Source of the DNA: Alphaproteobacteria bacterium
GTDB lineage: Bacteria; Pseudomonadota; Alphaproteobacteria; Micropepsales; Micropepsaceae
Length of the DNA: 35,495 bases
Reading direction: 5' to 3'
Assembly (NCBI GenBank): GCA_003131925.1
Contig: PKWC01000255.1
Span: forward strand, 3,973-39,467
This document shows, piece after piece, positions 10,379 through 31,983 of this stretch (the stretch's first letter is position 1; every line of letters starts with the position of its first letter). Under the pieces are notes generated by a model. That model ran no database searches. It saw nothing but the letters and a program-made list of their open reading frames with translations, and was not told the origin of the DNA. Position numbers and translations under genes: made by a program.

Positions 10379-10478
10379 GAGGGCTCTCCGGAAGGCCGGC
10401 AGACGCACCGGCGAGAACGAGCCGTTTTTACACGATTTCAGAAGAGCGTGTCATCCCCACGTCTGCCGTTACATTCTC

Positions 10479-12065
10479 TCAAGGATGAATTTTCTCAAGC
10501 GTCGCGCTGACATCGGCGTCGAAAAGGCCTTCGACGACGAAATTGTCTGGTAGCAACGCGATCCGGCCGAGACGCAGATCGTCATCGGCGACTTCGATCT
10601 TCACTCCGCCCGTATTCTTCGGATCTTTGATCGCCTCATCAACTTTTGAGCGAGCATCGCGGACGAGCAGCGACAGGTCGTATGAATAGGCTTTGCCGAT
10701 CGCCTGTGGCAGCCCGTTGCGGATCGCAGCGGAGAGAGCCCACAGGCGGCTGCCGATCTTGCGCGTCATCGCGAAATTGCGCAGCCGGATCAGGTGGCCA
10801 TCGTTTTCGACCGCGGGCATTGCCGTGAACCACACCGTACCGGTCTGGCCGTGAAGCTTGCCCAGCCCATCGACGCGGAACGTCGCGCTGATCGCAAGCC
10901 GGTTGGTGCTCGGAAAGAACTCCATCCCGGTCGGCGTGATCGCCTGAGCTCCGGACTTGACCGGTTTGCCGATGATGTTCGCAGATGCCGCAGCCGCAAG
11001 AAGGGGATAGGGAATCGCAATCGGCACGGCGAGAGAAAACTTTCCCGGCTGCGGCGGCAACGGAGCGTTCTCCGGAAGCTCGCCTGGACCCGCATCAGCT
11101 GGCTTGGTGGCCGACACGCTGGTCGCCGCTTCCAGCCGCGCGACGAGCTTGATCCCGTCATCTCCCACCTGCACGCCCGGAACCGAAAGCGATTTTGGCT
11201 CGACGCTCGCAAAGAAGGTTGGCGAGTTGCCGAGCGTGATCGGAAGCGACCAGGTTTTCCAGACCTGTTTCAGCTGGTCGCGGATCTTGTCGCAGGGGAT
11301 TTTGCCATTGATCTCGTCGACCTGGCTCTGAAGGGAACGGTTGATCTGCTCCGTCATCATGGCGCCGGCGGGAAATTTCCACGGTCCGATGCATGCCTTG
11401 AGCCCGCTGCCGGCGTCGAGGCAGCTCCGCCCGATGATGTCGATATCGGGCGGCGTGCCCCAGGCGAAATGCGTGACCGCCTGTTCGAGCTTCGGGCAGT
11501 ACGATTTGTCGAGCCGCACCATCCCCGAAATCGATACGACGAAGGTCCCGCTGAAATTCTTGTTGTTGATTTGTACGGCCTTGGCGAGACCTCCGGCGAA
11601 ACCGCCATTGCCGTCGAACTTGACGGGCACAGCGATGGCGATTCCCTGTCCGCCCCGCTTGACGGTGATGTTGCCGTTGCGCACGGCGTTCACGTGCCAA
11701 TCGAAATCCGCGCAGCCCTTGAACAAGGTGACATTTACAGACGGCGCAGACGAAGAAGACGGAGCCGAAGAGCCGAATCCGAGCTGACTGCAGCCAATCC
11801 TCGTGTGTCCCGATCGTGGTCCCGAAAAACGATCAGCCGCGGCATTCGCGGCATCGGCCAGCACATCGTAAGTGACGGTGAGGCTGGGCTGGAGGGTGCT
11901 CGTGCGTGCCTGGAATTCGGTCGTCGCGGCGCTGCGGGGCGGTTTCTCAGACAGAAGCGGGGCGGTTTCGGCGGCGGCGTGCGAAACGAGAGCCGCCAGA
12001 ACAATCATGGCAGGCGTCGTTGCAGCGGTCTTTGAAATTCGGAGTCCATTCCCCAACCTGGCCAT
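10479..12065 (-). CDS. DUF4403-like exported protein of unknown function
   Basis: 528-aa ORF with RBS GAGAGG, hydrophobic N-terminal segment and beta-rich two-part body (SLTVTYDVLADAANA; FSLAVPIAIPYPLLAAAAS). Family recognised by pattern only. Confidence 0.6.
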   Translation of the reverse strand: MARLGNGLRISKTAATTPAMIVLAALVSHAAAETAPLLSEKPPRSAATTEFQARTSTLQPSLTVTYDVLADAANAAADRFSGPRSGHTRIGCSQLGFGSSAPSSSSAPSVNVTLFKGCADFDWHVNAVRNGNITVKRGGQGIAIAVPVKFDGNGGFAGGLAKAVQINNKNFSGTFVVSISGMVRLDKSYCPKLEQAVTHFAWGTPPDIDIIGRSCLDAGSGLKACIGPWKFPAGAMMTEQINRSLQSQVDEINGKIPCDKIRDQLKQVWKTWSLPITLGNSPTFFASVEPKSLSVPGVQVGDDGIKLVARLEAATSVSATKPADAGPGELPENAPLPPQPGKFSLAVPIAIPYPLLAAAASANIIGKPVKSGAQAITPTGMEFFPSTNRLAISATFRVDGLGKLHGQTGTVWFTAMPAVENDGHLIRLRNFAMTRKIGSRLWALSAAIRNGLPQAIGKAYSYDLSLLVRDARSKVDEAIKDPKNTGGVKIEVADDDLRLGRIALLPDNFVVEGLFDADVSATLEKIHP

Positions 12066-12070
12066 AGTCT

Positions 12071-12085
12071 GTTCCCTCTCGGTTC
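12071..12085. promoter_or_regulatory. Candidate alphaproteobacterial LexA (SOS) box
   Basis: Exact GTTC-N7-GTTC (GTTCcctctcgGTTC) in the divergent intergenic region between the DUF4403-like gene and the exonuclease-ligase operon. Confidence 0.45.
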
Positions 12086-12243
12086 CGGAATATTCGGAGC
12101 GTGCGTGCCGACACCGCCCTTAACGTTTGAGAAGCCGTTTGCGTTTGCGAGTGCCTGATTTGCATCCATCTGCGCCACCGCCAGCCTTGCTCGCCGTTCG
12201 ACCGCTTGCTTCGCGCAAGCGCGAATGAGCACGTTTAAGAGCG

Positions 12244-13254
12244 ATGACCAGACCCGAAGAGCTGCTTCGCCCGACGCCGAACGGGCTCCATTGCCCGCCG
12301 GGCGATTTCACCATTGATCCGGTTCGTCCGGTGCCGCGCGCGGTAATCACGCACGGTCACGGCGATCACGCGCGGCCGGGCCATGGCGCGGTGCTGGCGA
12401 CCCGCGAGACGCTCGCCATCATGGCGGCGCGCTACGGAGAAGGGTTCGCGGAAACCGCACAGCCCGTCCGCTACGGCGAGACCAGTTCGCACAATGGCGT
12501 GGAGGTAACCCTGGTGCCCGCCGGGCACGTGCTCGGCTCGGCGCAGATCGTGCTGCGCTGGAAAGGACTCACCGCCGTCGTTTCGGGCGATTACAAACGC
12601 CGCCGCGACCCGACCTGTGCAGCGTTCGAGCCGGTGCCCTGCGACGTCTTTGTGTCCGAGGCGACATTCGGCCTGCCCGTCTTCCACCATCCCGACGACG
12701 CGGGCGAGATCGCCAAGCTGCTCAAATCCGTCGCGCAGTTTCCCGGGCGCGCCCATCTCGTCGGCGCCTACGCGCTCGGCAAGGCGCAGCGCCTGATCTG
12801 TCTGCTGCGCGAAGCAGGATACCAGAAAACAATATTTGTTCACGGCGCGCTTGCGACACTGAACGCGCTCTATGAAGCACATGGCGTCAGCCTGGGTCCG
12901 CTCGCGCCTGCCACCACCGAAACGCGCGATGCGTTTGCGGGCGAGATTGTTCTTGCTCCACCCGACGCACTTGCCGATCGTTGGTCGCGCCGCTTCGCCG
13001 ATCCGCTGCCTGTCTTTGCCTCAGGCTGGATGCGCGTGCGGGCGCGCGCGCGGCAGCGACAGGTGGAATTGCCGCTGGTGATTTCCGATCACGCCGATTG
13101 GGACGAGTTGACGCAGACATTCCGCGAGCTTCACCCCGAACAGGTGTGGCTCACCCATGGCGAGGACCAGGCACTGCTGCGCTGGGCTTCACTGAACGGC
13201 ATCACGGCGCAGACGCTGTCGCTCGTGGGTTACGGCGAAGAGGAAGGCGGGTAG
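12244..13254 (+). CDS. Ligase-associated DNA damage response exonuclease (metallo-beta-lactamase/beta-CASP fold)
   Basis: THGHGDH, PAGHVLGSAQ, SGDYKR, FVSEATFGLPVF, GAYALGKAQR and SDHAD motifs. Its stop abuts the ligase start. Confidence 0.93.
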   Translation: MTRPEELLRPTPNGLHCPPGDFTIDPVRPVPRAVITHGHGDHARPGHGAVLATRETLAIMAARYGEGFAETAQPVRYGETSSHNGVEVTLVPAGHVLGSAQIVLRWKGLTAVVSGDYKRRRDPTCAAFEPVPCDVFVSEATFGLPVFHHPDDAGEIAKLLKSVAQFPGRAHLVGAYALGKAQRLICLLREAGYQKTIFVHGALATLNALYEAHGVSLGPLAPATTETRDAFAGEIVLAPPDALADRWSRRFADPLPVFASGWMRVRARARQRQVELPLVISDHADWDELTQTFRELHPEQVWLTHGEDQALLRWASLNGITAQTLSLVGYGEEEGG

Positions 13255-15317: not shown

Positions 15318-16337
15318 TCAGGCAGCGGGTGGATCGGAATCCATCGCGAGCAGGGCGAAGCTCGCCAGCCAGTGCTCGCCCATATAGTCGCCTGTCACAT
15401 GCGGAAGCGCGCTGTCCAGATGCCGGTCAATCGCATATTTAATGCGCCCGCGCGCGTCCTGATCAGCGACCGCGTCCACGATCAGGTTCCAGCACCAGGC
15501 GCGCGACAGGTTGAGCCCGTCGAGATGCGCGATCTTGCCATCGCTGCGGTCGCTGACGAAAGCCGGCGAAAACAGCGGCGCGGGTTCGCCCTGCGCGAGG
15601 CGTGGAAGGAATCGCGTGAACCACCGCGCGAAACCGTCGCGCCCAAGAACTTTGCGCATGCAAGCGGCTTCGACAAGCGTCGAGGAAAGTAAGTCGTCGC
15701 CGCAGGGCTCCCAGGCCTGACAATCCGTATCGCTCGCGTACCACTGCATTGCCTTCTCCGTACAGAGAGTGGCGAATGACGGGTTGTCGATGGTGCGCGC
15801 GTAGTCGAGTGCGAGAAGAAGCGCGAATGCCGTGTTGGCGTGCGTGCCTGCGCGCACGGGATAGGTGGCAAGCGGAAGCCACGCTTCGAACCTGCGTTCG
15901 AACGCCCGCGCGAGCGGCGCGACTTCGCGGCTCCAGCGCCTGCCTTCTTCACTTCGGTGGCGTGCAACCTCACCGGCCAGCATCAGCGCCCACGCCCAGC
16001 CATAAGGCCGTTCGAATCCGCGGCTTTCGGCGCGGGCGAGATAGGCAATCTCGCCCGCAATGTTCTGCGATGTGAGCTGCACATCGAAAAGCGCACGGAT
16101 GCGGTTGCGCTCTGGCAGTTGCGAAAAGCGCCTGTAGAGCCGCGCAAGGAGCCAGGTGCCGTGCACGCAGGAATGCCAGTCGAAGCTGCCAAAGAATACC
16201 GGATGCAGCGCGCGCGGCCTCTTCACATCGAGGGGGCCGCCCATCACATGGTCGAGTTTGTTCGGCCATTCGCGTCCGACATGGCCGAGAGCGGCCTGCG
16301 CGAAACGCGAAGCGATGTCCTTCGTCAATGATCTCAT
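15318..16337 (-). CDS. DUF2891 family protein
   Basis: REWPNKLDH, HPVFFGSFDWHSCVHG, FERPYGWAW, HLDGLNLSRAW, YMGEHWLASFA. ATG 16337 overlaps the upstream stop (ATGA). Confidence 0.88.
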   Translation of the reverse strand: MRSLTKDIASRFAQAALGHVGREWPNKLDHVMGGPLDVKRPRALHPVFFGSFDWHSCVHGTWLLARLYRRFSQLPERNRIRALFDVQLTSQNIAGEIAYLARAESRGFERPYGWAWALMLAGEVARHRSEEGRRWSREVAPLARAFERRFEAWLPLATYPVRAGTHANTAFALLLALDYARTIDNPSFATLCTEKAMQWYASDTDCQAWEPCGDDLLSSTLVEAACMRKVLGRDGFARWFTRFLPRLAQGEPAPLFSPAFVSDRSDGKIAHLDGLNLSRAWCWNLIVDAVADQDARGRIKYAIDRHLDSALPHVTGDYMGEHWLASFALLAMDSDPPAA

Positions 16338-17305
16338 GCGTGGTGCGCGCCGAAACGGAAGACGAGCACATACATCAGGATGGTGTTGGCAGCCAAAAGC
16401 AGAATCGCGGTGGGCAGCTGCGCTTTTATGACCGCGTATCGGTCGGGCAGTTCGAGGAGCGCGGCGGGCACGATATTGAAATTGGCGGCCATGGGCGTAG
16501 TCAGCGTTCCACAAAAACCGGACAGCATGCCGATTGCGCCCATGATTGCCGGGTCGCCGCCGAATTTGTGGACAATCAGCGGCAGACCGATTGCCGCGGT
16601 CATCACCGGAAACGCAGCGAACGCATTGCCCATGATCGCAGTGAAGACTCCCATGCCGATGCAATAAGCGGCGATGGCGGTAAAGGCGTGGTCGAACGGG
16701 ATGTAATGGGCGAACACCAGTCCCACGGCGCGGCCCACGCCCGCCAGCGCGAACACCGCGCCGAGAGAGGCCAGCATCTGCGGCAGAACTGCGGCCCAGC
16801 CGATCGTGTCCATCAGGCGCCTGCCCTCGTCGAGCGGCGCCAGCAGTCGCGGCCGCAGCCAGAGAAGCGCGACAATCCAGGCGATCGCGACGCCGAGCGC
16901 GAGCGAGATCAACGTCGCCTGCTTCGCGTCGATGAATGGCATGCCGCCCGGCGCCACATTCTTCAGCGCCACCGTTCCAAGGAGTGCCGTTGCGGGAATG
17001 ATGAGCGCCGGAACGAACAGCGCGTTGCCGTATTCCGTGGCGCTCGCGCGGCGATCGGCTTCGCTTGTTGTTCGCTCGCCACCTTTGCCAAGAGCATGGA
17101 AACCGCCGAGAAGCACCAGCGCCAGGGCGAGCGCGCCATTTGCCGAGTCCGGAAGATGCGAGCCGAGGAGAAAACTCGTGGAGAACAGCCCCCAGAATGC
17201 GGCGGTTCCAAACCTCCTGGGATTGCTGCGGTCGCGCGCGCTTTGCACCGCAAAGCCCGCGAAAACAAACCCCGCGAACAGATAAACCTCTTCCAGGCCG
17301 ATCAC
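16334..17305 (-). CDS. DUF979 family membrane protein (putative 5-oxoproline transporter subunit)
   Basis: Polytopic hydrophobic protein with LPQMLASLGAVF, IMGNAFAAFPV and GFCGTLTTPMAANFNIVPAALLEL. GTG 17305 overlaps the upstream stop (GTGA). Confidence 0.88.
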   Translation of the reverse strand: MIGLEEVYLFAGFVFAGFAVQSARDRSNPRRFGTAAFWGLFSTSFLLGSHLPDSANGALALALVLLGGFHALGKGGERTTSEADRRASATEYGNALFVPALIIPATALLGTVALKNVAPGGMPFIDAKQATLISLALGVAIAWIVALLWLRPRLLAPLDEGRRLMDTIGWAAVLPQMLASLGAVFALAGVGRAVGLVFAHYIPFDHAFTAIAAYCIGMGVFTAIMGNAFAAFPVMTAAIGLPLIVHKFGGDPAIMGAIGMLSGFCGTLTTPMAANFNIVPAALLELPDRYAVIKAQLPTAILLLAANTILMYVLVFRFGAHHA

Positions 17306-17991
17306 GGCGAGCTTTCGGACGGCACGACGGCGGTTTGCGTCGCGAGCCATCGGTCGAGAAGCAGCAGACGCGTGCCATGGATCGCGAGCGCCATGAGCGC
17401 CGTCGGTATGGCCCAGAGCGAAAGCTCGAGCGGCTGAACCACGACACCGCTTTGCTCGAGAAAGCCCTTGATCAGGAGAATTGAGCCAATGGCGATAAAA
17501 ACGTCTTCGCCGAAAAAGACGCCGACATTGTCGGCAGAGGCGGCGTAGGCGCGGATACGGAAGCGGGCTCCGCTGCTCAATTCCGCCCCGCGCTTCTCAC
17601 CCGCGGCTTCCGCCATCGGCGCGATCAGCGGCCGGACCATTTGTGCGTGCCCGCCGATCGAGACGAGGCCCACGGCAGAAAACATCTGGCGCAGCGCCAG
17701 ATATGCAACCAGCAGGCGTCCGGGCGTCGCGGCAGGGATGCGGGCGACGAGCATGCGCGCGCGCTCCTGCAATCCGTAGCGCTCAAGTAGACCGATCACG
17801 GGCAGAACCAGAAATACGAGGCTGACATAGCGGCTCTCGTTGAACGCCTTCCCGAAGGCCACGAGAATTGCGACGGGGCCGAACCCGGCCGCCCATCCGG
17901 TCACGAATGCCGCCGCCGCAATGACCAGCAACGGATTGATGCGGATCAGAAATCCCAACACCACGACACCGACACCCAGCAGTGTCAGCAT
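17302..17991 (-). CDS. DUF969 family membrane protein (putative 5-oxoproline transporter subunit)
   Basis: MLTLLGVGVVVLGF...NPLLVI, LPVIGLLERYGL, GGHAQMVRPLIAPMAE, DNVGVFFGEDVFIA. RBS GGGAGG before ATG 17991. Confidence 0.88.
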   Translation of the reverse strand: MLTLLGVGVVVLGFLIRINPLLVIAAAAFVTGWAAGFGPVAILVAFGKAFNESRYVSLVFLVLPVIGLLERYGLQERARMLVARIPAATPGRLLVAYLALRQMFSAVGLVSIGGHAQMVRPLIAPMAEAAGEKRGAELSSGARFRIRAYAASADNVGVFFGEDVFIAIGSILLIKGFLEQSGVVVQPLELSLWAIPTALMALAIHGTRLLLLDRWLATQTAVVPSESSP

Positions 17992-18108
17992 AAGTCCCCC
18001 TCCCCATTTCGAATCAGAAACTACCGCTGAAAAACCGATTTTTTGCGATTGCATTTCGAATTGCGCGCAGACATTGTGATTCGCTTTCGTGCCCCGCAAG
18101 TTCTCATT

Positions 18109-18136
18109 TGTTAAACAAGTGCTGTTAAACAAGTGC
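18109..18136. repeat. Exact 14-bp tandem direct repeat (2 copies) in a divergent promoter region
   Basis: TGTTAAACAAGTGC at 18109-18122 and again at 18123-18136. Confidence 0.85.
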
Positions 18137-18264
18137 GCGCTATTGTTCCATGAGCGTGTACGACGCTGCCGGGCAGCGCGAGGCTTATCGAAGGCGCTAT
18201 CCTCCACTGCGCTGCCTCTCGCCGCCGGCGGGTTGCGCGCCGAACGGCAAGCAGAGGCATGCCA

Positions 18265-19443
18265 ATGAGATTGGTGGAAACGAGCAGCAGCCTCGAGCCG
18301 GCGGCGCTGCCCCTGCCAGCGGCGGTTTCTGCGCGGAGCGAAGTTGCGACCGTGCGCGAGCGGCTTGTCTCGCTCGACGCGATGCGCGGCTTCGCCGTCA
18401 TCGGCATGATCGTCGTGAACGCGCTTGCGACTTCGAAGGAAGCCTACGGCTTTCAGCCGGACTATTCATTTCTGTCGCATTCGGCCTGGGCGGGATTCAC
18501 CTTTGCCGATTTCGTTTTTCCCGCCTTCATCTTCATGGCGGGATTCTCCTTGGCTGCATCCCTGCGCCGTGCGCGGCTCGATTGGCCGGTGCTGCGCCGA
18601 ATCGGAGCGCGAACGGCAGGGCTGATGGCGCTCGGCTTTCTGCTGACCAATATCGCCTGGTTCGGCAATATGGATCACGGCGACTGGCGCCTGCTTGGTG
18701 TGCTGCAGCGCATCGGCATCTGCTATTTCGCCACAGCGATCCTCTTCGTCACGTGCGGCGCGCGCGCGCGGCTCCGGCTGGCGTTGCTAATTCTTCTTGT
18801 CTATTGGCCGCTGACGCTCATCCCGATTCCTGGCCACGCCACAAGCCTTCTCCTTCCCGGAGCCAACTTCGCCTCCTTCGTCGATCGCATGGTCCTTGGT
18901 TCCCATGCGCTCGTGACAGGTCCGAGCGGATACGATCCCGAAGGTCTGCTGAGCACGTTGCCCGCAATCGCCCAATGCCTGCTCGGTGCGCTTGCCGGCA
19001 ATTGGCTGTTGAACAACCGTGCGGTGGAGCGTGCGCCGTGGAAACTCGCCGCGGCCGGCGCCGTAACGCTTGCGGTCGGCCTCGCCTGGAGCCCGCTTTT
19101 TCCTCTCGTCAAGAACATCTGGTCCAGCAGCTATGTTCTCTTTTCCACCGGACTTGTGATGCTGCTTCTCGCCATCTCCTGGTGGGCACTCGACCGCAAA
19201 CGGCTGAACTTCTGGGGCGTGACGTTCCTCGAAGCATTCGGCGTCAACGCGCTTCTGGCTTACGTTATCCAGCAAACCGCACAGCTTCTGCCCGCCGGCG
19301 GCGAAATGCACGCGATAGGCGCCGCCAGCATGAAGATGGAGGCACCGGTCCTCATGACAAACCTGCCCATCGTGGCGTTCCTCGTCATGCTCTGGATGCC
19401 GCTCGAATTCATGCGGCGACGGCGCTGGATCGTCAGGCTCTGA
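18265..19443 (+). CDS. HGSNAT-like (heparan-alpha-glucosaminide N-acetyltransferase/DUF5009, NagX-like) membrane acyltransferase
   Basis: RLVSLDAMRG, HSAWAGFTFADFVFPAF, GVLQRIGICY, DPEGLLSTLPA, KNIWSSSYVL and many hydrophobic segments. ATG 18265 chosen from GAGG spacing (18259 is the alternative). Confidence 0.85.
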   Translation: MRLVETSSSLEPAALPLPAAVSARSEVATVRERLVSLDAMRGFAVIGMIVVNALATSKEAYGFQPDYSFLSHSAWAGFTFADFVFPAFIFMAGFSLAASLRRARLDWPVLRRIGARTAGLMALGFLLTNIAWFGNMDHGDWRLLGVLQRIGICYFATAILFVTCGARARLRLALLILLVYWPLTLIPIPGHATSLLLPGANFASFVDRMVLGSHALVTGPSGYDPEGLLSTLPAIAQCLLGALAGNWLLNNRAVERAPWKLAAAGAVTLAVGLAWSPLFPLVKNIWSSSYVLFSTGLVMLLLAISWWALDRKRLNFWGVTFLEAFGVNALLAYVIQQTAQLLPAGGEMHAIGAASMKMEAPVLMTNLPIVAFLVMLWMPLEFMRRRRWIVRL

Positions 19444-19449
19444 CGCGCC

Positions 19450-20598
19450 TCAGATCGGTTTTGCGTAGATGCGGTAAGTCTTGGCGGGCGGCCCGGCGAT
19501 CGCTTCGCCGAGCGCCACCATCCGGGAATCGTTCTCGCGAATCCAGGAATACTCGGCCCAGTCGAGCTGGTAGCGCGTCGAAGCCTGGATCACGAGCGAC
19601 TTGACCAGCAGGATGACAAGCGCGCTGCCGCGCGGCGTGGTGCGCCAGGCGCGGCGGATGCCGAGGAAAGGAATGCGTGCAGTCCGCCAAGTCTCGCGTT
19701 TCAACGTCCAGATCAGCTTCGCCCAATTGAAGGGAAACAGGCGACCGCGGAAAGGCGCAATGATGCCATTCAGATCGGGGAGGGCGACGGCAAAGCCGAC
19801 CTCCTTGCCATCGATCATCAGAAAGCGGCCATATTCGTTGCGGAAGAAAGGACGCAACTCCTTCGCCAGCGAGTCGATCTCCGCGGTGCTGAACGGGACA
19901 AATCCCCAGGCGTCGCTCCACGCGTCGTTGTAGATTTCGACAAGAAGATCGATCTCCGCACGATAGCGGCGCATGTCGAAATTGCGCAGTTGCGTTTTGC
20001 CGAAGCGCTCGGCGCGTGCCGCAAGCTGCTCGATGCGCGGCGGCAATCGGCGCGGCGTCGTGCGGTAGGCGTAAAGATCGATCTCCTTGGCGAGACCCGT
20101 ACTTTCAAGCAACGGCCCCATCCATGGTTTGCCATGAGGCATGAGCATGGCCGGCCGCGAGTCGAAGCCGGAGACGAGGCAACCGCATTCTTCGTTGACA
20201 GAGAAACTGAGCGGCCCCATCATCCGCGTGAGGCCCTGCGTCTTCAGCCAATCCGCCGCCGTTTCGACCAGAGCGCGCGCGGCTTCCCTGTCGTCTGCGC
20301 AATCGAAAAAACCAAAATGGCCGGTGTTATCTCGATGACGTTCGAGATGACGACGATTGACATGCGCGGTGATGCGGCCAACCGGCTTGCCGCTCCGCAA
20401 AGCGGCAAAAAAGGCCGCTTCGCCGAAAGTGAAGAACGGCGCATGCTTCTTTGAAATTCGTTGCTTTTCGAGCAGGTTGAGTTGGGGAACCCAATTGGGA
20501 TCGTTCGCGTAGACAGCAAAGGGCACAGCGAGCCAGTCGTCCGCGCTTTTTTCAACATCGACCCGGGAGATCCGCACGCTCTGTCCGGAATTGCTCAT
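19450..20598 (-). CDS. Tandem-GNAT N-acyltransferase of the YghO / bacterial ceramide synthase (bCerS)-like family
   Basis: VYANDPNWVP, PVGRITAH, GHFGFFDC, MGPLSFSVNEECGCLVSGFD, IYNDAWSDAWGFVP, SWIRENDSRM...KTYRIYAK. RBS GGAGAGG before ATG 20598, which overlaps the SDR stop. Confidence 0.75.
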   Translation of the reverse strand: MSNSGQSVRISRVDVEKSADDWLAVPFAVYANDPNWVPQLNLLEKQRISKKHAPFFTFGEAAFFAALRSGKPVGRITAHVNRRHLERHRDNTGHFGFFDCADDREAARALVETAADWLKTQGLTRMMGPLSFSVNEECGCLVSGFDSRPAMLMPHGKPWMGPLLESTGLAKEIDLYAYRTTPRRLPPRIEQLAARAERFGKTQLRNFDMRRYRAEIDLLVEIYNDAWSDAWGFVPFSTAEIDSLAKELRPFFRNEYGRFLMIDGKEVGFAVALPDLNGIIAPFRGRLFPFNWAKLIWTLKRETWRTARIPFLGIRRAWRTTPRGSALVILLVKSLVIQASTRYQLDWAEYSWIRENDSRMVALGEAIAGPPAKTYRIYAKPI

Positions 20599-21398
20599 GT
20601 GCGGCCTCTCCGTGTCCGTTGGAGAAGCGGATCGATCAGCGACGGCGGCAACACTGCCGCAAATCTTGTCAACGCCGCGAGCTGCCAGGGAAAACTGATT
20701 TCCCGCTTGCCGCGTCCAAGCCCGGAGACAATTCGCGCTGCGGCCCGCTCCACGCTCCAAAGAAAAGGCGGGTGCCCCGGCACGCTTGCGCTCATCGGCG
20801 TGGCGACGAAGCCGGGACATACGACCGTGACACGGATGCCTTTAGGTCCAAGCAGACGCCGCAAACCGTGGCCGTACACACGGACGGCAGCTTTCGATGC
20901 CGAATAGAGCGGCGCATCCGGGAGGCCGACATGGGCAGCGAGCGAACTCATGATCACTACATGCCCTTTCCCGCGTGCGACGAAGCGAGGCAAAAGGGGA
21001 ATCACGCTGTTTGTTACGCCCAGAACATTCGTCTCGATGATGTCTCGAGAGACGGAGAGAGATTCACCCGCAGGTGGGGCGATCACGTTCTCGCCGCCGA
21101 TGCCGGCATTGGCGATGACCATGTCGATGGGCTGCCGCCCATCGCATTCCTCAATCCAGGAGCGCATCGCTTCCGAATGGACGACGTCAATTGTATTCCA
21201 CTCCGTCCTGGCGCCCGCCTTCCGACATTCGAGCGCAACCTGCTCCAGCCTCTCCTCGTTGCGCGCGACAAGCGAAAGCCGCATCCCCTTGCGCGCATAA
21301 TAGCGCGCCAAAGCCGCGCCGATTCCGCTGCTCGCTCCGGTGATGAGGATATGTGCAGGCGCGACCAAAGCGGCATCCGCGCCAACATCAGCGGCCAC
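20595..21398 (-). CDS. Classical short-chain dehydrogenase/reductase (SDR)
   Basis: ITGASSGIG, IANAG, MSS and YSASK catalytic motif, CPGFVATPM. GTG 21398 is 8 nt after GGAG (TTG 21404 is the alternative). Confidence 0.9.
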   Translation of the reverse strand: MAADVGADAALVAPAHILITGASSGIGAALARYYARKGMRLSLVARNEERLEQVALECRKAGARTEWNTIDVVHSEAMRSWIEECDGRQPIDMVIANAGIGGENVIAPPAGESLSVSRDIIETNVLGVTNSVIPLLPRFVARGKGHVVIMSSLAAHVGLPDAPLYSASKAAVRVYGHGLRRLLGPKGIRVTVVCPGFVATPMSASVPGHPPFLWSVERAAARIVSGLGRGKREISFPWQLAALTRFAAVLPPSLIDPLLQRTRRGRT

Positions 21399-21417: not shown

Positions 21418-22554
21418 TCATCGCGTCCGCCAGACGAACTGGCTCGACATCGAGTAATTCCAGAGCGCGCCCATGATCGCGCCGGCTGCGCCTGCGAGCC
21501 ACCAGGTCGGCTCCTGAGAATAGAGCCACGAGGCAAGTCCTACGTTGGTAACCGCACCGGCCGCGCCAATGAGACAGAAACCCAAAAATCCCGTGATCAG
21601 TCTCCAGCCGGAAAGACGCCGGTCGTAATAGGTGAGCCGGTTGTTCAGCAGAAAATTGCTAACCAGCGCGGCGAAGGTCGCGATGGTCTGCGCGAGCCAG
21701 AATTTGAATGCAAAGCTCTCGAAGGCAAATCTCAAAATGACGAGATGAACGGCCAGACCCGTCGTGCCAACCAGCGCAAAGGAGATGAACCTTGGATCGA
21801 TCACGCCGCCGGTCAGTTTCGCGAGCGCGAGGCCCGCGAATTCAAGCGCGATCGCCGCATCGAACTTGCTTCGGCCATGCGTGCGTTCGCGGAATTCATA
21901 TGGAATTTCGGTGACGCGCAAGCGGTTCTTTGCCGTCAGCACGATGTCGAGGAGAATCTTGAATCCGACCGGCGAAAGCTCGGCGGCAACGTCGTCGAGC
22001 TGATCCCTTCTCAGCATGAAGAAACCGCTCATCGGATCGGAAAGGTCAACCCCCAACAGCCGGCGCGCGAGATTGGTGGCGGTGCGGCTGAGCTTCGCAC
22101 GCTCGGGAGTGAAGGAGCCGGCGCTGCCGCCCGCCACATAGCGGCTGCCGACGACGAGATCGGCTTCGTCTGCAGCCAGCGTGGCGAGCATGCGCGGCAG
22201 AATGGTTTCATCATGCTGCTGGTCGGCATCCATCACCGCAACATACGTCGCGCTCGACGCCAGCATGCCTTCGATGCAGGCGCCCGCCAGCCCTCTGCGT
22301 CCCAGACGCTTCAGGCAGCGCACGCGCCGATCCTCAGTCGCCACATCCTTCACGACCTCGGCAGTGCCATCCGGCGAATCGTCGTCGACGAAGATCGCCT
22401 CCCAGGCAATTCCAGCGAGTGCGCGATGGAGCCGTGCCACAATTTCGCGCACGTTGCCACGTTCATTGAACGTCGGAATGACGACGCTCAAAAGCGCGGG
22501 CGCAGACGTTGGCACCTCAGCAGGCGATGACGTAGCAATTGCGCGTGCGGACAT
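21418..22554 (-). CDS. Polyprenol-phosphate glycosyltransferase (GT2, DPM1/GtrB-like) fused to a C-terminal GtrA flippase-like domain
   Basis: VVIPTFNE, FVDDDSPDGT, VMDADQQHD, VGSRY, DPMSGFF; C-terminal hydrophobic domain RFISFALVG...SNFLLNNRLTY. Confidence 0.9.
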   Translation of the reverse strand: MSARAIATSSPAEVPTSAPALLSVVIPTFNERGNVREIVARLHRALAGIAWEAIFVDDDSPDGTAEVVKDVATEDRRVRCLKRLGRRGLAGACIEGMLASSATYVAVMDADQQHDETILPRMLATLAADEADLVVGSRYVAGGSAGSFTPERAKLSRTATNLARRLLGVDLSDPMSGFFMLRRDQLDDVAAELSPVGFKILLDIVLTAKNRLRVTEIPYEFRERTHGRSKFDAAIALEFAGLALAKLTGGVIDPRFISFALVGTTGLAVHLVILRFAFESFAFKFWLAQTIATFAALVSNFLLNNRLTYYDRRLSGWRLITGFLGFCLIGAAGAVTNVGLASWLYSQEPTWWLAGAAGAIMGALWNYSMSSQFVWRTR

Positions 22555-22665: not shown

Positions 22666-24033
22666 TCACGTTACGCCGCAATAAAGGCAGCCGGCGAGCG
22701 CGGCAAGATCCAAAAACAGCAAATAGCGATAGTCGCAGGCGATCGAGATCGCGAAAAAGCTGGCAGTGAAGACGAGCGCACAGACGAGCAGCGACGCGAT
22801 GGCGAGATCGGCCGGACGCCGGCGCCTCAGCAATACGAACAACAAGGCCGAAGCCAGCACTGCATAGGTTGCGTGCGAAAATATCGGCGTCCCAACGAAA
22901 AAGTTTGCATAATTTCCGAGCGCTCGGTCCTGCGGGCGGATCCGACGCTCAAGGCCCAGTTCGTGCAAATATCGCGGAAATCCGGTCACCCCGACGTACC
23001 AGTCTTCGCAACCTGCGGGATCGGGCGTGAGGAAGGTCCAGGCGAAGACACGCGCGCGCACGCCGAGGTAGTCGAGCGGATGGTGCACCAGGACGCCCCA
23101 CCATTGCGACGCAATTGCGCCCGGGCTCGTGCTCGCGAATTCGTTCAGCAGTTCCGTTGAGCCGTATAGGGTGTCGTTGCGCGCGGGCGTGTAGAGGCGC
23201 ACGCCGTCGGAGCGGATCAGCCGCTCGAGATCGGGATTCGCGCGGGAAAGTACGTCCAGCCTGAGCCTGGGATCGGCCTTCGCCTCTCCAATCAGATCGT
23301 AAAGCTGCAGAAGCCTGATCTGCCCAAGCGGCCCTGAGCCGCCGCTCGCGCGCTGCGCGAGCGCAAGGCTTGCGGCCAGCACGACCAGTGCAGCGGCTGT
23401 TCCCATCCCAATGGTGCAAACGACCGCACCCCGCCAGCCGACATGATTCTTTCTTGCGATCACAAAGAGCGCAATCGCGCCGAATGCCAGCGCAATCGCG
23501 CCGTTCTGGCGCGCAAGCGTTGCCAGGGCGAAAAGAAAAAACGCGGCAACGATCAGCGCCCATCTTTGCCTCGCGGAGGCCCAGCGCGAGGCCGCGTGAG
23601 CGAGCAGCACGAAGCCTGCGATAGCCGCGTCGGCGAACAGGATGTCCTTCCAGACGATGCCCTGGTAGAGGACGAATTGTGGGAGGGCGACGGTGATCGC
23701 GGCGACTGCGACCGCAGCCCAGGACACGCGTGGCGCAATCCACAGGATCGACAGCATGCCGCCGAAGAGCAGGATGGAGTCGAACAGGATGAAAAGGCCG
23801 GTGCCAGGATGCACCGCGTCAGCGAGACCCAGCATCCACGCCATGACCGGAGGGTGCCAGTCGTTGTAATGCCCGGTGCGGCCATCATGGAGTTGCGCGA
23901 CGGAGTCATAGGAGAGCTGGCCGGGCCAGTTCAGGGCGACGGAAACCGTGCTGCCAAGCACGATCGCGGCGCCTGCCGCGATCGTGCTGGCCTGCCCTCG
24001 CGGGCGCCGGCCGGGTCCGGTTGCGCTGTTCAC
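22666..24033 (-). CDS. Polytopic membrane protein, putative GT-C-fold glycosyltransferase
   Basis: First loop WPGQLSYDS...YNDWHPPVMAW (acidic residues plus HPP), internal soluble loop and C-terminal DYRY. RBS GAGGAGG before GTG 24033. Confidence 0.6.
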   Translation of the reverse strand: MNSATGPGRRPRGQASTIAAGAAIVLGSTVSVALNWPGQLSYDSVAQLHDGRTGHYNDWHPPVMAWMLGLADAVHPGTGLFILFDSILLFGGMLSILWIAPRVSWAAVAVAAITVALPQFVLYQGIVWKDILFADAAIAGFVLLAHAASRWASARQRWALIVAAFFLFALATLARQNGAIALAFGAIALFVIARKNHVGWRGAVVCTIGMGTAAALVVLAASLALAQRASGGSGPLGQIRLLQLYDLIGEAKADPRLRLDVLSRANPDLERLIRSDGVRLYTPARNDTLYGSTELLNEFASTSPGAIASQWWGVLVHHPLDYLGVRARVFAWTFLTPDPAGCEDWYVGVTGFPRYLHELGLERRIRPQDRALGNYANFFVGTPIFSHATYAVLASALLFVLLRRRRPADLAIASLLVCALVFTASFFAISIACDYRYLLFLDLAALAGCLYCGVT

Positions 24034-24276
24034 CCCCCGATCCTCCTCTGATTGAGTAACGATTACAGTTTTCAGCTAATAAAAAAATCACCGTGACCTT
24101 GCGTCGGATCGGCTGCCCGGCGCCGATTTGCCTTGAAAATGCCGGACTGGAGGCATTACCTGATGTCAGATGGGGGATTACATTTTTTCTGCGTGACCTG
24201 ACGCAGTGCGGTCCAAATTCGATGATCCCCGCGCATGGCATCGGTCGGTGGGGCGGAGCGCGGTTGCGGACGTGAC

Positions 24277-27200
24277 ATGATCGACAAGCCGGTCTTCTTC
24301 GACGCAAGCGGGCGCCGGGCATCGCGCATGTCCGTTTTCGGACGCGCCGCCGCGGTCATCACAACCTTCATCGGCATCGTCTTCATCGGCAGTCTGATCG
24401 TCGAACCGCGCGTCGCCGGCCCAAACCTTCCCGGTCGTCTCAGCGCCATCAATCCGGCCGAACTTGTGCGGCGCGCCTTCGATCCGGCGATGATGAACGC
24501 TGCCGCCAGGCTCGCCGCGGAGGCGAGGGCTGAGCGCGCAAAACTCGTGCGCGCGTGGCGCGCGCAGCGCGCGCTGGTCGCGCAAGCCCATTCTGCAAAA
24601 ACGGCACTGCGTCCCTTCCCCAACCGTCCGCTCACGGTCGGATTCTATTTGAGCACCGACGAACTCGGATACCCCGACCTGAAGCGCGTCGTGTCGAAAC
24701 TCGACTGGTTCGTTCCGGCATGGATGAATCTCGACGGGCCCGACATGAAGCTTGTCCACAACGTGGACAAGCGAGCGATCTCGGCGATCGCGCATGCCAA
24801 ACCGAATGTCGCCATTCTGCCGCTGGTGCAGAACGCCTCGAACGCGGTGTGGAACGGGCAGGGAATGGCGGAACTGCTCTCGGATCCGGTGAGGCGGCAC
24901 ATTCTCCTGAACGGAGTTGTCACCTATCTCGCCAAAAACAAGTTTCAGGGTGCGGTTGTCGATTTCGAAAGCCTGCCGCAGAGCGCTTATCCCGATCTCG
25001 CGACTTTTCTCGGCGCAATGAAGGCGGCATTCAAACCGCATGGCTGGCTCGTCGTCGTCGCTTCTCCCTTCGACGACGACAGCTGGCCTTACGCCGATTA
25101 CGCAAACCTCGTCGACTACACGCTGCTCATGGCCTATGACGAGCATGACGACGCGGCGGAGCCCGGAAGTATCGCCGGCCAGAGCTGGTTCGAGGAGAAT
25201 CTCGACGAGCGCATGGCAGTCCTCTCGCCTAGTCGCACCATCATCGGTCTCGGAAATTACGGCTACGACTGGTCGGAAGGCAAAGGCGAGGCGCTGTCGT
25301 TCCAGGATGCGGTGATTGCCGCGCGCGATTCCCAGGCGCGCATCGTCTTCGACGACCGCACCAACAACCCGCACTTCTCCTATCTCGAGGACGACAATAG
25401 CAAGCACGAAGTGTGGTTTCTCGACGGCGTGACGGCCTACAACCAGATCCACGCGGCGGATCCGTATCAGCCCGCGGGCTATGCGCTATGGAAGCTCGGC
25501 AGCGAGGACCCTTCCACCTGGACCGTACTCGGCCGTCGCTACGGCACCCCTGCGCCAGGCGGGTTACGCGACATTCCGACCAGCCAGGACGTCGATTTCG
25601 AGGGTGTGGGCGAAATCCTCGATGTGGAGGCACGCCCCACCCCGGGCACGCGCGCGCTGGATATCGACAGAGATACGGGCGATATCGACGACGAGACCTA
25701 CACCAAGCTGCCGACGCCGTACGTCATCCGCCAGGTGGGGGCCAGCCGCAAGAAGCTCGCGCTCACTTTCGACGATGGTCCAGATCCGCAATGGACTCCG
25801 CAGATCCTGGACATTCTGAAGGCAAAAAACGTCAAAGCGACGTTCTTTGTCATCGGCGAAAATGCGGAAGCCTATCCCGAGATCGTGCAGCGCATGGTCG
25901 CGGAGGGACACGACGTCGGCAACCACACTTTCACCCATCCCAACCTCGCCGACACGCCGGGCCCCGCGATTGTGCTGGAACTGAACGCCACCCAGAGACT
26001 CTTTCAGGCGCTGACCGGACGTTCGCTACGGCTGTTCCGCCCGCCCTATCTGGGCGACGCGGAGCCCTCCGACGAGCCTGAGCTTCGTCCCGTAGAGCTG
26101 GCTCAGAGCCTCGGTTACATAACCGTCGGAATGCACGCCGACCCCGTCGACTGGGCGCTGCCCGGAACTGACGCGATCCTGCAGCGCACGCTCGCGGCGG
26201 TTCATGCGAAGAACCCGGATCAGCGCGCCAACATCGTCTTGTTTCACGACGCCGGAGGAGATCGCTCGCAGACCGTGGCGGCGCTGCCCAACGTGATCGA
26301 CACGTTGCGGGCTCAGGGCTATCAGTTCGTGCCGGTCGCCCAACTTGCCGGACTGACACGCGCTCAGGCCATGCCGCGCCTGCCAGTGACAGCGACGCTC
26401 ATCATGGACCGGCTTGTCTTCCTTGCGCTCAGCTGGACCGGCGTCATTCTTTATTATTGCTTTCTGACGGCGATCTTCCTGGGAATAGGCAGGCTGCTCG
26501 TCTGGTGCGTGCTCGCAATGTTTAATCGGCCGCGCGAAGCGGAGCAGGCCGCGCCGCCTGCGTCTACCAATCCAAGTCGCGTATCGGTGATCATTCCTGC
26601 CTTCAACGAAGAGAAAGTGATCGCGACGACGGTCGAGCGAATACTCGCGAGCGATCATCGCAATATCGAAGTGCTCGTGGTGGATGACGGCTCGCGCGAC
26701 GCAACCGCCGCAATCGTCGAGCAGCAATTCGGCGCCGACGCACGCGTGGAGCTTGTGCGCATCGCGAATGGCGGCAAGGCCAACGCGCTCAACATAGGTC
26801 TTGCACGCGCGCAAGGCGACGTGATCGTGGCGCTGGACGCCGACACTCAGTTTTGCGCCGACACGATCTCGCGGCTGGTGCGCTGGTTCGCCGATCCGCA
26901 TGTTGGCGCCGTGGCCGGCAACGCCAAGGTCGGCAACCGCATCAACACAATCACGCGCTGGCAGGCGCTCGAATATATCGTGTCCCAGAATCTCGAACGT
27001 CGCGCGCTGGCCGCTCTCGACACGCTGACCGTGGTTCCCGGCGCCGTCGGCGCGTGGCGCCGCAGCGTGCTCGAGGAGCTCGGCGGCTTTACCGCGAGCA
27101 CGCTCGCCGAGGACCAGGACCTCACCATCGCCGTGCAGCGTGCGGGATATCGCGTGTTGTTCGACGCGAGCGCCATCGCCTGGACCGAGGCGCCGGCCAC

Positions 27201-27711
27201 GGTCCGCGGGTTCGCCAAGCAGCGTTTCCGCTGGGCTTTCGGGACACTGCAATGTCTGTGGAAATATCGCAGCATGACGTTCAATCCGCGCTATGGTGCA
27301 CTTGGACTCGTCGCGTTGCCCCAGGCGTGGCTGTTCCAGATTTTCCTGACTGCTCTCGCGCCGGTCGCGGACCTCATGCTGATCTGGCAATTGCTGTTCC
27401 AGTCGATCGCCTATCTCGAGCACGGCGCGGAGTTCAGCAACACCAATCTGGTCACCGTCGGTGTCTACTATGCGGTGTTCATGGTCGTCGATCTCCTCGC
27501 TGCGCTCTTCGGATTCTGCATGGAGCGGCGCGAGAACTGGAACCTGACCTGGTGGCTGATGTTGCAGCGCTTCGGCTATCGCCAGATCATGTATTACGTG
27601 CTCGTGCGATCCATCTCCACGGCATTGCGCGGCCGGTTCGTCGGCTGGTCCAAGCTCGAGCGCACCGGAACCGTAAAGGTGAACTACACGCGCGATTTGC
27701 CGGCGCATTGA
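24277..27711 (+). CDS. Three-domain fusion: GH18-like hydrolase + NodB/CE4 polysaccharide deacetylase + processive GT2 (PgaC/IcaA-like) synthase
   Basis: GH18-like GAVVDFE and LMAYDEH; CE4 motifs TFDDGP, GNHTFTH, FRPPY, LFHD; GT2 motifs IPAFNEE, VDDGSRD, GKANALN, ALDAD, AEDQD, QRFRW; TM segments at the N-terminus, middle and C-terminus. ATG 24277. Confidence 0.9.
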   Translation: MIDKPVFFDASGRRASRMSVFGRAAAVITTFIGIVFIGSLIVEPRVAGPNLPGRLSAINPAELVRRAFDPAMMNAAARLAAEARAERAKLVRAWRAQRALVAQAHSAKTALRPFPNRPLTVGFYLSTDELGYPDLKRVVSKLDWFVPAWMNLDGPDMKLVHNVDKRAISAIAHAKPNVAILPLVQNASNAVWNGQGMAELLSDPVRRHILLNGVVTYLAKNKFQGAVVDFESLPQSAYPDLATFLGAMKAAFKPHGWLVVVASPFDDDSWPYADYANLVDYTLLMAYDEHDDAAEPGSIAGQSWFEENLDERMAVLSPSRTIIGLGNYGYDWSEGKGEALSFQDAVIAARDSQARIVFDDRTNNPHFSYLEDDNSKHEVWFLDGVTAYNQIHAADPYQPAGYALWKLGSEDPSTWTVLGRRYGTPAPGGLRDIPTSQDVDFEGVGEILDVEARPTPGTRALDIDRDTGDIDDETYTKLPTPYVIRQVGASRKKLALTFDDGPDPQWTPQILDILKAKNVKATFFVIGENAEAYPEIVQRMVAEGHDVGNHTFTHPNLADTPGPAIVLELNATQRLFQALTGRSLRLFRPPYLGDAEPSDEPELRPVELAQSLGYITVGMHADPVDWALPGTDAILQRTLAAVHAKNPDQRANIVLFHDAGGDRSQTVAALPNVIDTLRAQGYQFVPVAQLAGLTRAQAMPRLPVTATLIMDRLVFLALSWTGVILYYCFLTAIFLGIGRLLVWCVLAMFNRPREAEQAAPPASTNPSRVSVIIPAFNEEKVIATTVERILASDHRNIEVLVVDDGSRDATAAIVEQQFGADARVELVRIANGGKANALNIGLARAQGDVIVALDADTQFCADTISRLVRWFADPHVGAVAGNAKVGNRINTITRWQALEYIVSQNLERRALAALDTLTVVPGAVGAWRRSVLEELGGFTASTLAEDQDLTIAVQRAGYRVLFDASAIAWTEAPATVRGFAKQRFRWAFGTLQCLWKYRSMTFNPRYGALGLVALPQAWLFQIFLTALAPVADLMLIWQLLFQSIAYLEHGAEFSNTNLVTVGVYYAVFMVVDLLAALFGFCMERRENWNLTWWLMLQRFGYRQIMYYVLVRSISTALRGRFVGWSKLERTGTVKVNYTRDLPAH

Positions 27712-27738: not shown

Positions 27739-29196
27739 TTACTTTGGAACGAAGAATACCCCTTCGTCGTTGGCGCGATCGATTCGATAGTTGCGGCGGA
27801 TCGCGCCCTGCACATCGGGGGGCAGCGGAAATGGGTCCGTTTCGTCAAGCTCAATAGCCGAAAAATGACGTGCGTCGAGCAGGCCGATAAACGGCGCCGG
27901 GTTGCGCGCATGGGTGACGTACTGCTGGTCGAGATTGAACATGTCGACCTCCGCTGGTTTTCCGGCCCAGTAGCACAATGCCAGACTCTCGCACATCGCC
28001 GGTCCCCGATGGTTGCGCAGGAATGTGATGTCATCACTCGCCAGCGCTGCCTCATCCCGCATCGGATGCAGCCAGTATGCCGGCTCGCGCCAATCTGAAA
28101 CGGTGAACGCAATCATCGCTATCGGCAACAGGCAGAAAAATGCGAGCGCGCGGCTCGCAATGTGCGGCACGGGGCCTCTCCGGCGCGTGAGCACGTCCAG
28201 CGCAAGTCCCGCACCGAGCGCGAGCGCTATATCGGCGTCGAACATCGCGTTGACATCGACACCTGCGCCGCCGAGCAACCAGCCGCCCACAGCAACCGAT
28301 ATCGCCGCGTAAAGGGCGGACAGTGCGACAAACCGGTCGCGCCAGCGCCAGATCATCAAACCCAGGAGCGCGCAGAGCGGGATCAATCCGACCTCCAGCC
28401 AGCTCGATACGTTTTCGCGCAGCTGGGCAAACGAATAGGCGCGTGCCGAATTGAGGCGATCGAGCAGGTCGAACCCGAAAGTGATCCGGAATGCCAATAA
28501 CCCCGCAACCGACAACGCAGCGATCCAGACCGCGAATCGCAATGCATTGCGGCGGTCGTAGAGGGCCAACCAAATCTGCGCCGCGAGCGGCAGCGCAAAG
28601 AGATTGTGTTTCACGAAGCCGCCGGCCACAAAGAGCGATGCACTTGCGAATATCGCAAACGCTCCGCGCGGTTCGCGCAACAAAAAAGGAAGCGCCGCAA
28701 GCTGGAGTGCGTGTCCGAGAAGCTGGGGGTCATCCATACCCACATAGTCGGACGTAACGAGCAGAATCCCGGCAAAAAGCAGCGGCGCGAAGGCGGTCGC
28801 CTGCCACGCACCCTCCATGCGGCGAATTGCAATCGCGACGAACCAGGAACAGCAAAGGAACGACGCAAGTGATATGACGCGTCCGGCGATGATGTGATCG
28901 TCCAGCAATTTCCCCAGATAACCGACCACATAAAAGGAAAGCGGCGGATAGTTGTTTGTCGTCAAGCTGGCGGCCGACGGATAGAGTCCGTGTCCCGCAA
29001 GGGCTGCAGCTGCGTGGTAGGCGTTCCAGCCTTCATTCGGATCAAGAGAAACGTGAAGCGGTAGAACCGAAATCGCACGCACAACGCCTGCCACGCACAA
29101 TAGCGCGGCAGCCATGAGGAGAACAGGCAACATGGGCGTAAGCGCGTGGTCGAGCGCGTTCGCGCGCGCGTCTCCCTTGTCGCGAGAAGCGTTCAT
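27739..29196 (-). CDS. Polytopic membrane protein, putative GT-C-fold glycosyltransferase
   Basis: First loop LDPNEGWNAY...NNYPPLSFY, many hydrophobic segments and a small soluble C-terminal domain. ATG 29196 overlaps the upstream stop (ATGA). Confidence 0.6.
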   Translation of the reverse strand: MNASRDKGDARANALDHALTPMLPVLLMAAALLCVAGVVRAISVLPLHVSLDPNEGWNAYHAAAALAGHGLYPSAASLTTNNYPPLSFYVVGYLGKLLDDHIIAGRVISLASFLCCSWFVAIAIRRMEGAWQATAFAPLLFAGILLVTSDYVGMDDPQLLGHALQLAALPFLLREPRGAFAIFASASLFVAGGFVKHNLFALPLAAQIWLALYDRRNALRFAVWIAALSVAGLLAFRITFGFDLLDRLNSARAYSFAQLRENVSSWLEVGLIPLCALLGLMIWRWRDRFVALSALYAAISVAVGGWLLGGAGVDVNAMFDADIALALGAGLALDVLTRRRGPVPHIASRALAFFCLLPIAMIAFTVSDWREPAYWLHPMRDEAALASDDITFLRNHRGPAMCESLALCYWAGKPAEVDMFNLDQQYVTHARNPAPFIGLLDARHFSAIELDETDPFPLPPDVQGAIRRNYRIDRANDEGVFFVPK

Positions 29197-31980: not shown

Positions 31981-31983
31981 GAC

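Follow-up and report, generated by a model that had tools for sequence, protein, structure and literature searches.

A classical short-chain dehydrogenase translationally coupled to a bCerS-family acyltransferase as a candidate replacement for CerR in Alphaproteobacteria

The window, that is the whole stretch of 35,495 nucleotides analysed here (G000:C218:3973-39467), comes from a Rhizomicrobium-like metagenome-assembled genome with a completeness of 91.6% and carries on its minus strand two overlapping genes, one for a classical short-chain dehydrogenase/reductase (SDR) and one for a tandem GNAT N-acyltransferase assigned here to the bacterial ceramide synthase (bCerS) family. The two proteins probably catalyse the two final reactions of a short pathway leading to a ceramide-type lipid, in which the SDR would take the role that CerR has in Caulobacter crescentus. 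The Spt-bCerS-CerR pathway is known; what is new is a variant with a classical SDR coupled to bCerS, which appears from gene order and phylogeny to be real and conserved. The initial annotation of this DNA had proposed a bCerS-like GNAT with a classical SDR in place of CerR, and comparative genomics supports this through the complementary distribution of the reductases, the conserved coupling and a co-occurring synthase.

The core of bacterial ceramide synthesis has three members, Spt, bCerS and CerR; CerR or a four-gene spt operon has served as search criterion (PMC11334938, PMC10411912, PMC11087976). The corresponding genes of C. crescentus are AasR CC_1165, CerR CC_1164, AcpR CC_1163, Spt CC_1162 and bCerS/CerS CC_1154 (CCNA_01212). 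Non-homologous replacements of the reductase, suspected from metagenomes, have been raised as speculation only (PMC11334938), and it is disputed whether acylation or reduction comes first; the reported periplasmic location of CerR does not account for where its reducing power comes from (PMC11087976, PMC11324152). None of PMC11334938, PMC10411912 and PMC11087976 describes a classical SDR in translational coupling with bCerS.

Overlap of the SDR and GNAT genes

The features of the gene pair are as follows.

19450-20598, minus strand: putative bCerS-family tandem-GNAT N-acyltransferase, 382 amino acids, clade A (SDR-coupled)
20595-21398, minus strand: classical SDR, 267 amino acids, GTG start at 21398, proposed 3-keto reductase in CerR's place
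20595-20598, minus strand: ATGA stop/start overlap from SDR to GNAT, read directly in the sequence

The overlap described in the initial annotation is thus present as ATGA, the SDR stop codon TGA (20597-20595) sharing bases with the GNAT start codon ATG (20598-20596). The start at 20598 is consistent with the N-termini and lengths (376-388 amino acids) of homologues, and the GTG start codon of the SDR is preceded by GGAG. The pair was also correctly described as lying downstream of a GT2-GtrA gene on the same strand, this gene (21418-22554) being placed 19 nt before the SDR start. By inspection, a signal peptide was seen in neither protein.

For comparison, 80 related GNAT loci were drawn from named genomes. 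In 25 of 29 related loci the stop/start overlap was conserved, and among loci with the SDR upstream it was a 4-nt NTGA in 20, a 1-nt overlap in 3 and a 7-8-nt overlap in 2; a gap of 3 to 148 nt separated SDR and GNAT in just 5 loci. Because the overlap is kept in this proportion of loci, the coupling of SDR and GNAT is more than chance.

The GNAT and the bCerS family

Family models say little about the GNAT, which gave a weak, sub-threshold match to Acetyltransf_1 alone in Pfam, no match to NCBIfam models and no match in a sequence search of the PDB, so that only the fold search was informative there. An AlphaFold2 model built on 38 sequences (pLDDT 91.2, pTM 0.89) had as its top PDB matches tandem-repeat GNATs throughout, namely MAB_4324, the clavulanate tandem GNAT, glucosamine N-acetyltransferase and MshD. 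The predicted two-domain fold of about 380 residues, as in bCerS, is shared with MAB_4324 (7q3a), the clavulanate enzyme (2wpx) and MshD (1ozp) at a Foldseek E of ~1e-11 and TM of 0.53-0.67. Identity to the solved tandem GNATs is, however, 10-14%, and those enzymes acetylate small amines, none being a lipid N-acyltransferase. All six motifs that had been quoted for the GNAT were found, with DPNWVP at residue 33, VGRI at 73, GFFD at 96, GPLSFSVNEE at 128, NDAWSDAWGFVP at 224 and SWIREN at 351.

Homologues of equal length number more than 2000, and this large family has 6161 representative clusters at E<=0.001. In tblastn the window GNAT matched the GNATs of 23 aasR-cerR-acpR-spt clusters at E 1e-86 to 1e-94, and its homology to cluster GNATs is full-length, at 36-42% identity over ~375 residues. 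The loci with a GNAT identity of <=42%, from Parvularculaceae, Hyphococcus, Rhodovibrionaceae and Geminicoccaceae, have the order AMP-ligase, Epimerase-type SDR, ACP, alpha-oxoamine synthase (AOS), DUF2141 and GNAT, with a fatty-acid hydroxylase close by. This order matches aasR-cerR-acpR-spt which, together with cerS, is the Caulobacter arrangement (PMC11324152), and the AOS of one such cluster (L058) passes the curated Spt model NF047599 with 578.6 bits at a cut-off of 500. An association of the GNAT with Spt-type AOS was observed in linked loci and in a fusion protein, P0197, the two genes being unlinked in the window's own genome. The natural fusions of bCerS-type GNATs comprise P0197 with an AOS (780 amino acids) and P0168 with FA_hydroxylase (630 amino acids); P0123 in the representative library is a double tandem-GNAT of 784 amino acids.

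Because of its predicted fold, its full-length homology to the cluster GNATs, the synteny and the fusions with AOS and hydroxylase, we place the window GNAT in the bCerS family, a putative assignment made via the cluster GNATs. The initial annotation had staked its proposal on the GNAT lying within the bCerS clade, and it falls in the family of the aasR-cerR-acpR-spt clusters.

The reductase as a classical SDR

The SDR matched adh_short (PF00106) in Pfam with E=1.7e-43 and 148.8 bits, and Epimerase with 19.6 bits, under the cut-off of that model. Its motifs are TGASSGIG at 20-27, R46 after beta2, NAG at 97-99, N124, S151/S152 and Y165xxxK169, which comprise the TGxxxGxG, NAG and N-S-Y-K tetrad of a classical SDR. 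The best PDB matches were ketoacyl reductases of polyketide and fatty-acid type with actinorhodin ketoreductase on top, and KDSR was not among the best 60 solved SDRs matched, having only the superfamily in common with the window SDR. A grouping with sugar-nucleotide or DprE2-type reductases had been named beforehand as adverse to the proposal, and the protein reads as a classical, ketoacyl-reductase-like SDR and not as one of sugar-nucleotide type. Nor is it an extended SDR of Epimerase/NmrA/3Beta_HSD type and ~310 amino acids such as CerR, the CerR-like cluster protein L058:6737-7669 being Epimerase-type. By its sequence the window SDR is a predicted analogue of CerR and not a member of the CerR family.

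Distribution of the two reductases

A maximum-likelihood tree of the 80 GNATs was divided by a two-way split at 98% SH-aLRT. Clade A, with 35 rows including the window and with Rhizomicrobium, Hyphomicrobiales and Beijerinckiaceae as its taxa, had a classical SDR within 200 bp in 32 of the 35; clade B, with 45 rows, had the SDR in none and held all 23 of the CerR/AcpR/AasR clusters. The SDRs found directly upstream of the GNAT in clade-A loci are orthologues with 45-87% identity, and the coupled SDRs form a single clade (95%) with a topology mirroring the GNAT tree, as expected of a co-inherited unit.

When a CerR-like protein from a cluster of Parvularculaceae type was searched against whole genomes, a CerR orthologue was absent in 15 clade-A genomes (the window's own included; 12 with the SDR beside the GNAT), where the best match was at most 70 bits and thus at generic-epimerase level. 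The same probe gave CerR-like matches of 153-662 bits in 5 clade-B genomes. Orthologues of AasR, AcpR, DUF2141 and the hydroxylase were also absent from the window's genome. Within the window's genus, SDR and clade-A GNAT were either both present (G000) or both absent (G208, G023). An even sample of 301 Alphaproteobacteria contained clade A in 2 or 3 genomes, too rare for a profile, and targeted genomes were used instead.

The congener G208 harbours a Caulobacter-like cluster (L136:3646-5959, L133:600-10560) with acpR-spt and, further along, hydroxylase-GNAT, together with two LptF/LptG paralogues, DUF2141, a radical SAM gene, a Polysacc_synt_3 flippase and GT4. Neither a CerR-like gene nor an orthologue of the window SDR was found in G208, and further reductase solutions must therefore exist.

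The partner alpha-oxoamine synthase

The initial annotation saw no spt in the window, and no AOS was found there. The genome holds three genes of the AOS family, HemA, Kbl and an orphan, and the genome search that had been suggested for spt led to this orphan, a Spt-like AOS at G000:C194:7399-8673 whose orthologues adjoin SDR-GNAT pairs in other genomes. The orphan and its orthologues are here called A-type AOS. A 146-residue open reading frame (ORF) that overlaps the C194 synthase at its start was discarded as spurious, being Arg-rich and having neither a Pfam match nor a homologue in the 80 loci.

In 14 loci the distance between A-type AOS and SDR-GNAT was no more than 5 kb, and the order AOS-SDR-GNAT occurred in L032, L033, L034 and the metagenome contigs L131 and L132. 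Independent gene calls on the two contigs gave an operon of Aminotran_1_2, adh_short and GNAT, flanked by GT4 and CDP-alcohol phosphatidyltransferase genes as candidate head-group enzymes. Head-group candidates of similar kind and a fatty-acid hydroxylase were present in other clade-A loci, and homologues of the GT4 or CDP-alcohol transferases found beside the module elsewhere are absent from the window's genome. In L053 an AOS occupies 8221-9984 and the GNAT begins 8 nt further on. Linked or not, A-type AOS with 49-81% identity to the C194 protein was present in each of the 13 tested genomes with a coupled SDR, and G011 and G013, clade-A genomes with no SDR beside the GNAT, have it as well; 7 genomes lacking the SDR-GNAT pair yielded no AOS reaching 49% identity. 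One SDR-GNAT pair, in G230, is accompanied by an AOS equidistant from A-type and cluster-type.

In the AOS tree the A-type forms its own clade (99%), apart from HemA, Kbl, BioF and cluster-type Spt, and in G003 a true BioF (431.7 bits, cut-off 426.45) occurs alongside it. The best solved relative of the C194 AOS is the Sphingobacterium serine palmitoyltransferase (3A2B/8GUH) with 210.6 bits, followed by BioF/Kbl with 192 and cysteate acyltransferase with 143. An AOS has been regarded as Spt-like when it is distinct from BioF, Kbl and HemA and co-localised with bCerS (PMC11334938), and the C194 AOS stands in a separate 99% clade with orthologues beside SDR-GNAT. The curated NCBIfam Spt models were unreliable as a yes/no test for spt, and synteny, trees and phylogenetic profiles were used instead; NF047603 exceeded its cut-off in no control genome, Caulobacter included.

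Downstream of the C194 synthase (L020, G000:C194:7399-12364) lie two ABC ATPases with Wzt C-terminal domains (9490-10926 and 11009-12364), and ABC-2 transporter genes are again neighbours of the module in L038 and L131. These genes could represent a lipid exporter or simply O-antigen export. In Terripilifer ovatus (L056:6681-9201) a FabG-like SDR, an ACP and a ketoacyl synthase are found directly upstream of SDR-GNAT, which suggests a dedicated acyl-chain supply.

Proposed pathway and comparison with known systems

What follows on substrates, product and reaction order is inferred. In a condensation with an acyl thioester, the A-type AOS would turn an amino acid (serine most likely) into a 3-keto long-chain base. 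The acyl donor would probably be acyl-CoA, as the genome is without an AasR or AcpR orthologue, and such a donor would also fit the likeness to the acyl-CoA-using Sphingobacterium enzyme. The classical SDR would then reduce the 3-keto group with NAD(P)H, which is the task of CerR in Caulobacter, and the bCerS-type GNAT would N-acylate the base, before or after this reduction. Through the ATGA overlap the SDR and the GNAT would be made in fixed proportion, and a complex between them is possible. As neither shows a signal peptide, all steps may take place on the cytoplasmic side, where NAD(P)H is available, and the route is probably cytoplasmic in its entirety. Since the A-type AOS fails the curated Spt models, the amino acid may be one other than serine and the product a ceramide-like lipid.

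More tentatively, and with somewhat less than even confidence, the module may be regarded as a self-contained cytoplasmic three-gene ceramide pathway of acyl-CoA-using A-type AOS, classical SDR and bCerS, an evolutionary alternative to the five-gene AasR/AcpR/Spt/bCerS/CerR route, in which an SDR-bCerS complex may form and possibly reduce first and acylate second.

In eukaryotes the route consists of serine palmitoyltransferase (SPT), KDSR (TSC10/FVT1, a classical SDR) and CerS. The proposed pathway resembles it in the class of the reductase, and because the SDR and the GNAT are both predicted to be cytoplasmic, an order of reduction followed by acylation is possible. The eukaryotic CerS, however, is polytopic, of Lag1p type and without relation to GNATs, and the enzymes of the eukaryotic route are integral to the membrane.

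With Caulobacter the module shares a tandem GNAT homologous over its full length to those of Caulobacter-type clusters, and the same logic of AOS, N-acyltransferase and keto-reductase. The window reductase is, however, a classical SDR of 267 amino acids (PF00106) whereas CerR is an NDUFA9-like extended SDR, the window's genome is without orthologues of AasR and AcpR and has its synthase in a separate AOS clade, and the window reductase and acyltransferase are translationally coupled and without signal peptides, against a periplasmic location reported for CerR (PMC11087976). In Bacteroides thetaiotaomicron the 3-ketosphinganine reductase BT_0972 is a classical SDR (PMC9278070) and thus a bacterial example of such an enzyme reducing a 3-keto long-chain base. 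The likeness is one of SDR family; the taxa differ, and BT_0972 is not reported as coupled to a ceramide synthase gene. The capnine or sulfonolipid pathway, with the cysteate acyltransferase CapB/CFAT and the SDR reductase CapC (PMC11211663, PMC9304779), is similar in being a sphingolipid-like route where a keto-reductase of SDR type acts after an AOS. It differs in that the C194 AOS is nearer to the solved Spt (210 bits) than to cysteate acyltransferase (143), and the capnine taxa are Bacteroidota.

Neighbouring genes in the window

15318-18207, minus strand: DUF2891 (709-residue ORF) and DUF969, adjacent, function not known
18259-19443, plus strand: HGSNAT/NagX-like polytopic acyltransferase (HGSNAT_cat 1.1e-12, Acyl_transf_3 2.9e-09)
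21418-22554, minus strand: GT2-GtrA fusion glycosyltransferase (Glycos_transf_2 2.9e-32, GtrA_DPMS_TM 3.2e-17)
22666-24033, 27739-29208 and 29193-30830, all minus strand: three large ORFs of 455, 489 and 545 amino acids, no Pfam match
24235-27711, plus strand: fusion of GH18, polysaccharide deacetylase and a GT2/GT21/chitin-synthase-like domain, 1158 amino acids
30649-31980: IspH/LytB, in the hopanoid/isoprenoid block 30649-35495
31984-33132: HpnH-like radical SAM protein with DUF3463, same block
33055-34311, minus strand: HpnG-like phosphorylase, same block
33741-35486, minus strand: squalene-hopene cyclase, running off the window

The HGSNAT/NagX-like gene converges on the GNAT gene with 6 nt between the stops, and its match to the NagX model (1.5e-45) is under the cut-off. 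The GT2-GtrA gene was next to the SDR solely in Rhizomicrobium loci and variable even there (1.5 kb off in L028), and it is probably not part of the core module. Beside it lies the set of three ORFs, of which 27739-29208 and 29193-30830 overlap. In Rhizomicrobium relatives the GH18-deacetylase-GT2 fusion is kept beside the locus with 79-96% identity, and DUF2891-DUF969 is kept in several of them. The neighbourhood of GT2-GtrA, GH18-deacetylase-GT2 and NagX-like genes was kept solely within Rhizomicrobium, and unevenly. The initial annotation had also considered acylation of an amino-hopanoid, and this was not borne out; a link between the module and hopanoid genes was rejected, as none of the 80 related loci has a homologue of Shc, HpnH or HpnG at 10 kb or less from the GNAT.

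Weighing of the proposed pathway and its alternatives

Several observations weigh against a ceramide-type route with the SDR in CerR's role. The support is of a comparative-genomic kind, and the link to bCerS runs through the cluster GNATs. With a genome that is 91.6% complete, the absence of CerR from the window's own genome taken alone is weakened and is not proof. The synthase is unlinked in that genome, and the pair there follows a GT2-GtrA gene. The C194 AOS is below the cut-off in all curated Spt models (NF047599 272.6 against 500, NF047600 260.3 against 640 and NF047603 190.5 against 670 bits), the best curated model for A-type AOS is bioF, though also below cut-off, and deep branching in the AOS tree is not settled, including the position of A-type relative to true Spt. 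Lone SDR homologues with 45-47% identity exist in three clade-B genomes. Finally, Aquibaculum arenosum (G018) has a CerR-type cluster as well as a second AOS-GNAT-SDR locus, so that the SDR-GNAT module is not always a replacement and might make a lipid other than canonical ceramide. This second locus (L127:4448-7551) has its SDR in convergent orientation, the aasR-cerR-acpR-spt-bCerS cluster being elsewhere in the genome.

It is unlikely, although the likeliest of the alternatives, that the chemistry is as proposed and the synthase uses an amino acid other than serine, such as glycine, alanine or cysteate, giving a sphingolipid-like N-acyl amino alcohol that may coexist with true ceramide in genomes with both systems. 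The separate A-type clade, its scores below all curated Spt cut-offs and the presence in A. arenosum of both a canonical cluster and an AOS-GNAT-SDR locus would agree with this, as would the loop APPIPIMAVP of the C194 AOS, which we take to be the PPATP loop of Spt with a 4-residue insertion. Serine palmitoyltransferase is, however, the best solved relative, cysteate acyltransferase scores lower (143 bits) and most carriers are without any other Spt candidate; transferases of GT4 and CDP-alcohol type next to the module would suit a lipid whose C1 hydroxyl is free, as it is in ceramide.

That the SDR instead acts on the N-acyl donor, preparing or altering it as, say, a FabG-like maker of 3-hydroxyacyl chains, while the 3-keto group of the base is reduced by another enzyme or kept, is improbable to a greater degree. 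Polyketide and fatty-acid-type ketoacyl reductases are its best solved relatives, the pair in the Terripilifer locus L056 is closely preceded by genes for a FabG-like SDR, an ACP and a ketoacyl synthase, and the spt-bCerS cluster of G208 without CerR or SDR requires that other reductases exist. Yet the distributions of SDR and CerR are complementary, the minimal conserved AOS-SDR-GNAT operon carries no second reductase, and a classical SDR is proven as 3-ketosphinganine reductase in Bacteroides (PMC9278070).

It is very unlikely that the Rhizomicrobium pair was recruited to a glycan or envelope locus, with the GNAT acylating a non-sphingoid amine, for instance an amino sugar borne by a polyprenyl carrier or a polysaccharide, or else an amino-hopanoid, and the SDR acting on a keto-sugar in the manner of DprE2, since the suggestive surroundings (GT2-GtrA 19 nt upstream, the NagX/HGSNAT-like acyltransferase, the GH18-deacetylase-GT2 protein, hopanoid genes 10-16 kb from the pair, a synthase unlinked in the genome) are set against neighbours that are kept solely within Rhizomicrobium and vary there, a pair that travels with A-type AOS and not with glycan or hopanoid genes across Hyphomicrobiales and metagenome contigs, and an A-type AOS kept in every SDR-coupled genome tested, the window's own included.

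Significance

If the ceramide-type route with a classical SDR in CerR's role is correct, the coupled SDR is a candidate for the 'alternative non-homologous' reductases of PMC11334938. A bCerS with a cytoplasmic classical SDR and without CerR, AcpR and AasR would be a natural minimal system for tests of the reaction order. Surveys requiring CerR or a four-gene spt operon would miss these soil Alphaproteobacteria, for which the module would give better genomic markers. Two cultured strains, Methylocella sp. CPCC 101449 (locus L052) and Terripilifer ovatus H3SJ34-1 (locus L056), carry the module, and the prediction is thereby directly testable by lipidomics. Under the more tentative reading of a self-contained three-gene pathway, Rhizomicrobium, many Hyphomicrobiales and Beijerinckiaceae would be unrecognised sphingolipid producers, the cultured Methylocella and Terripilifer strains included.

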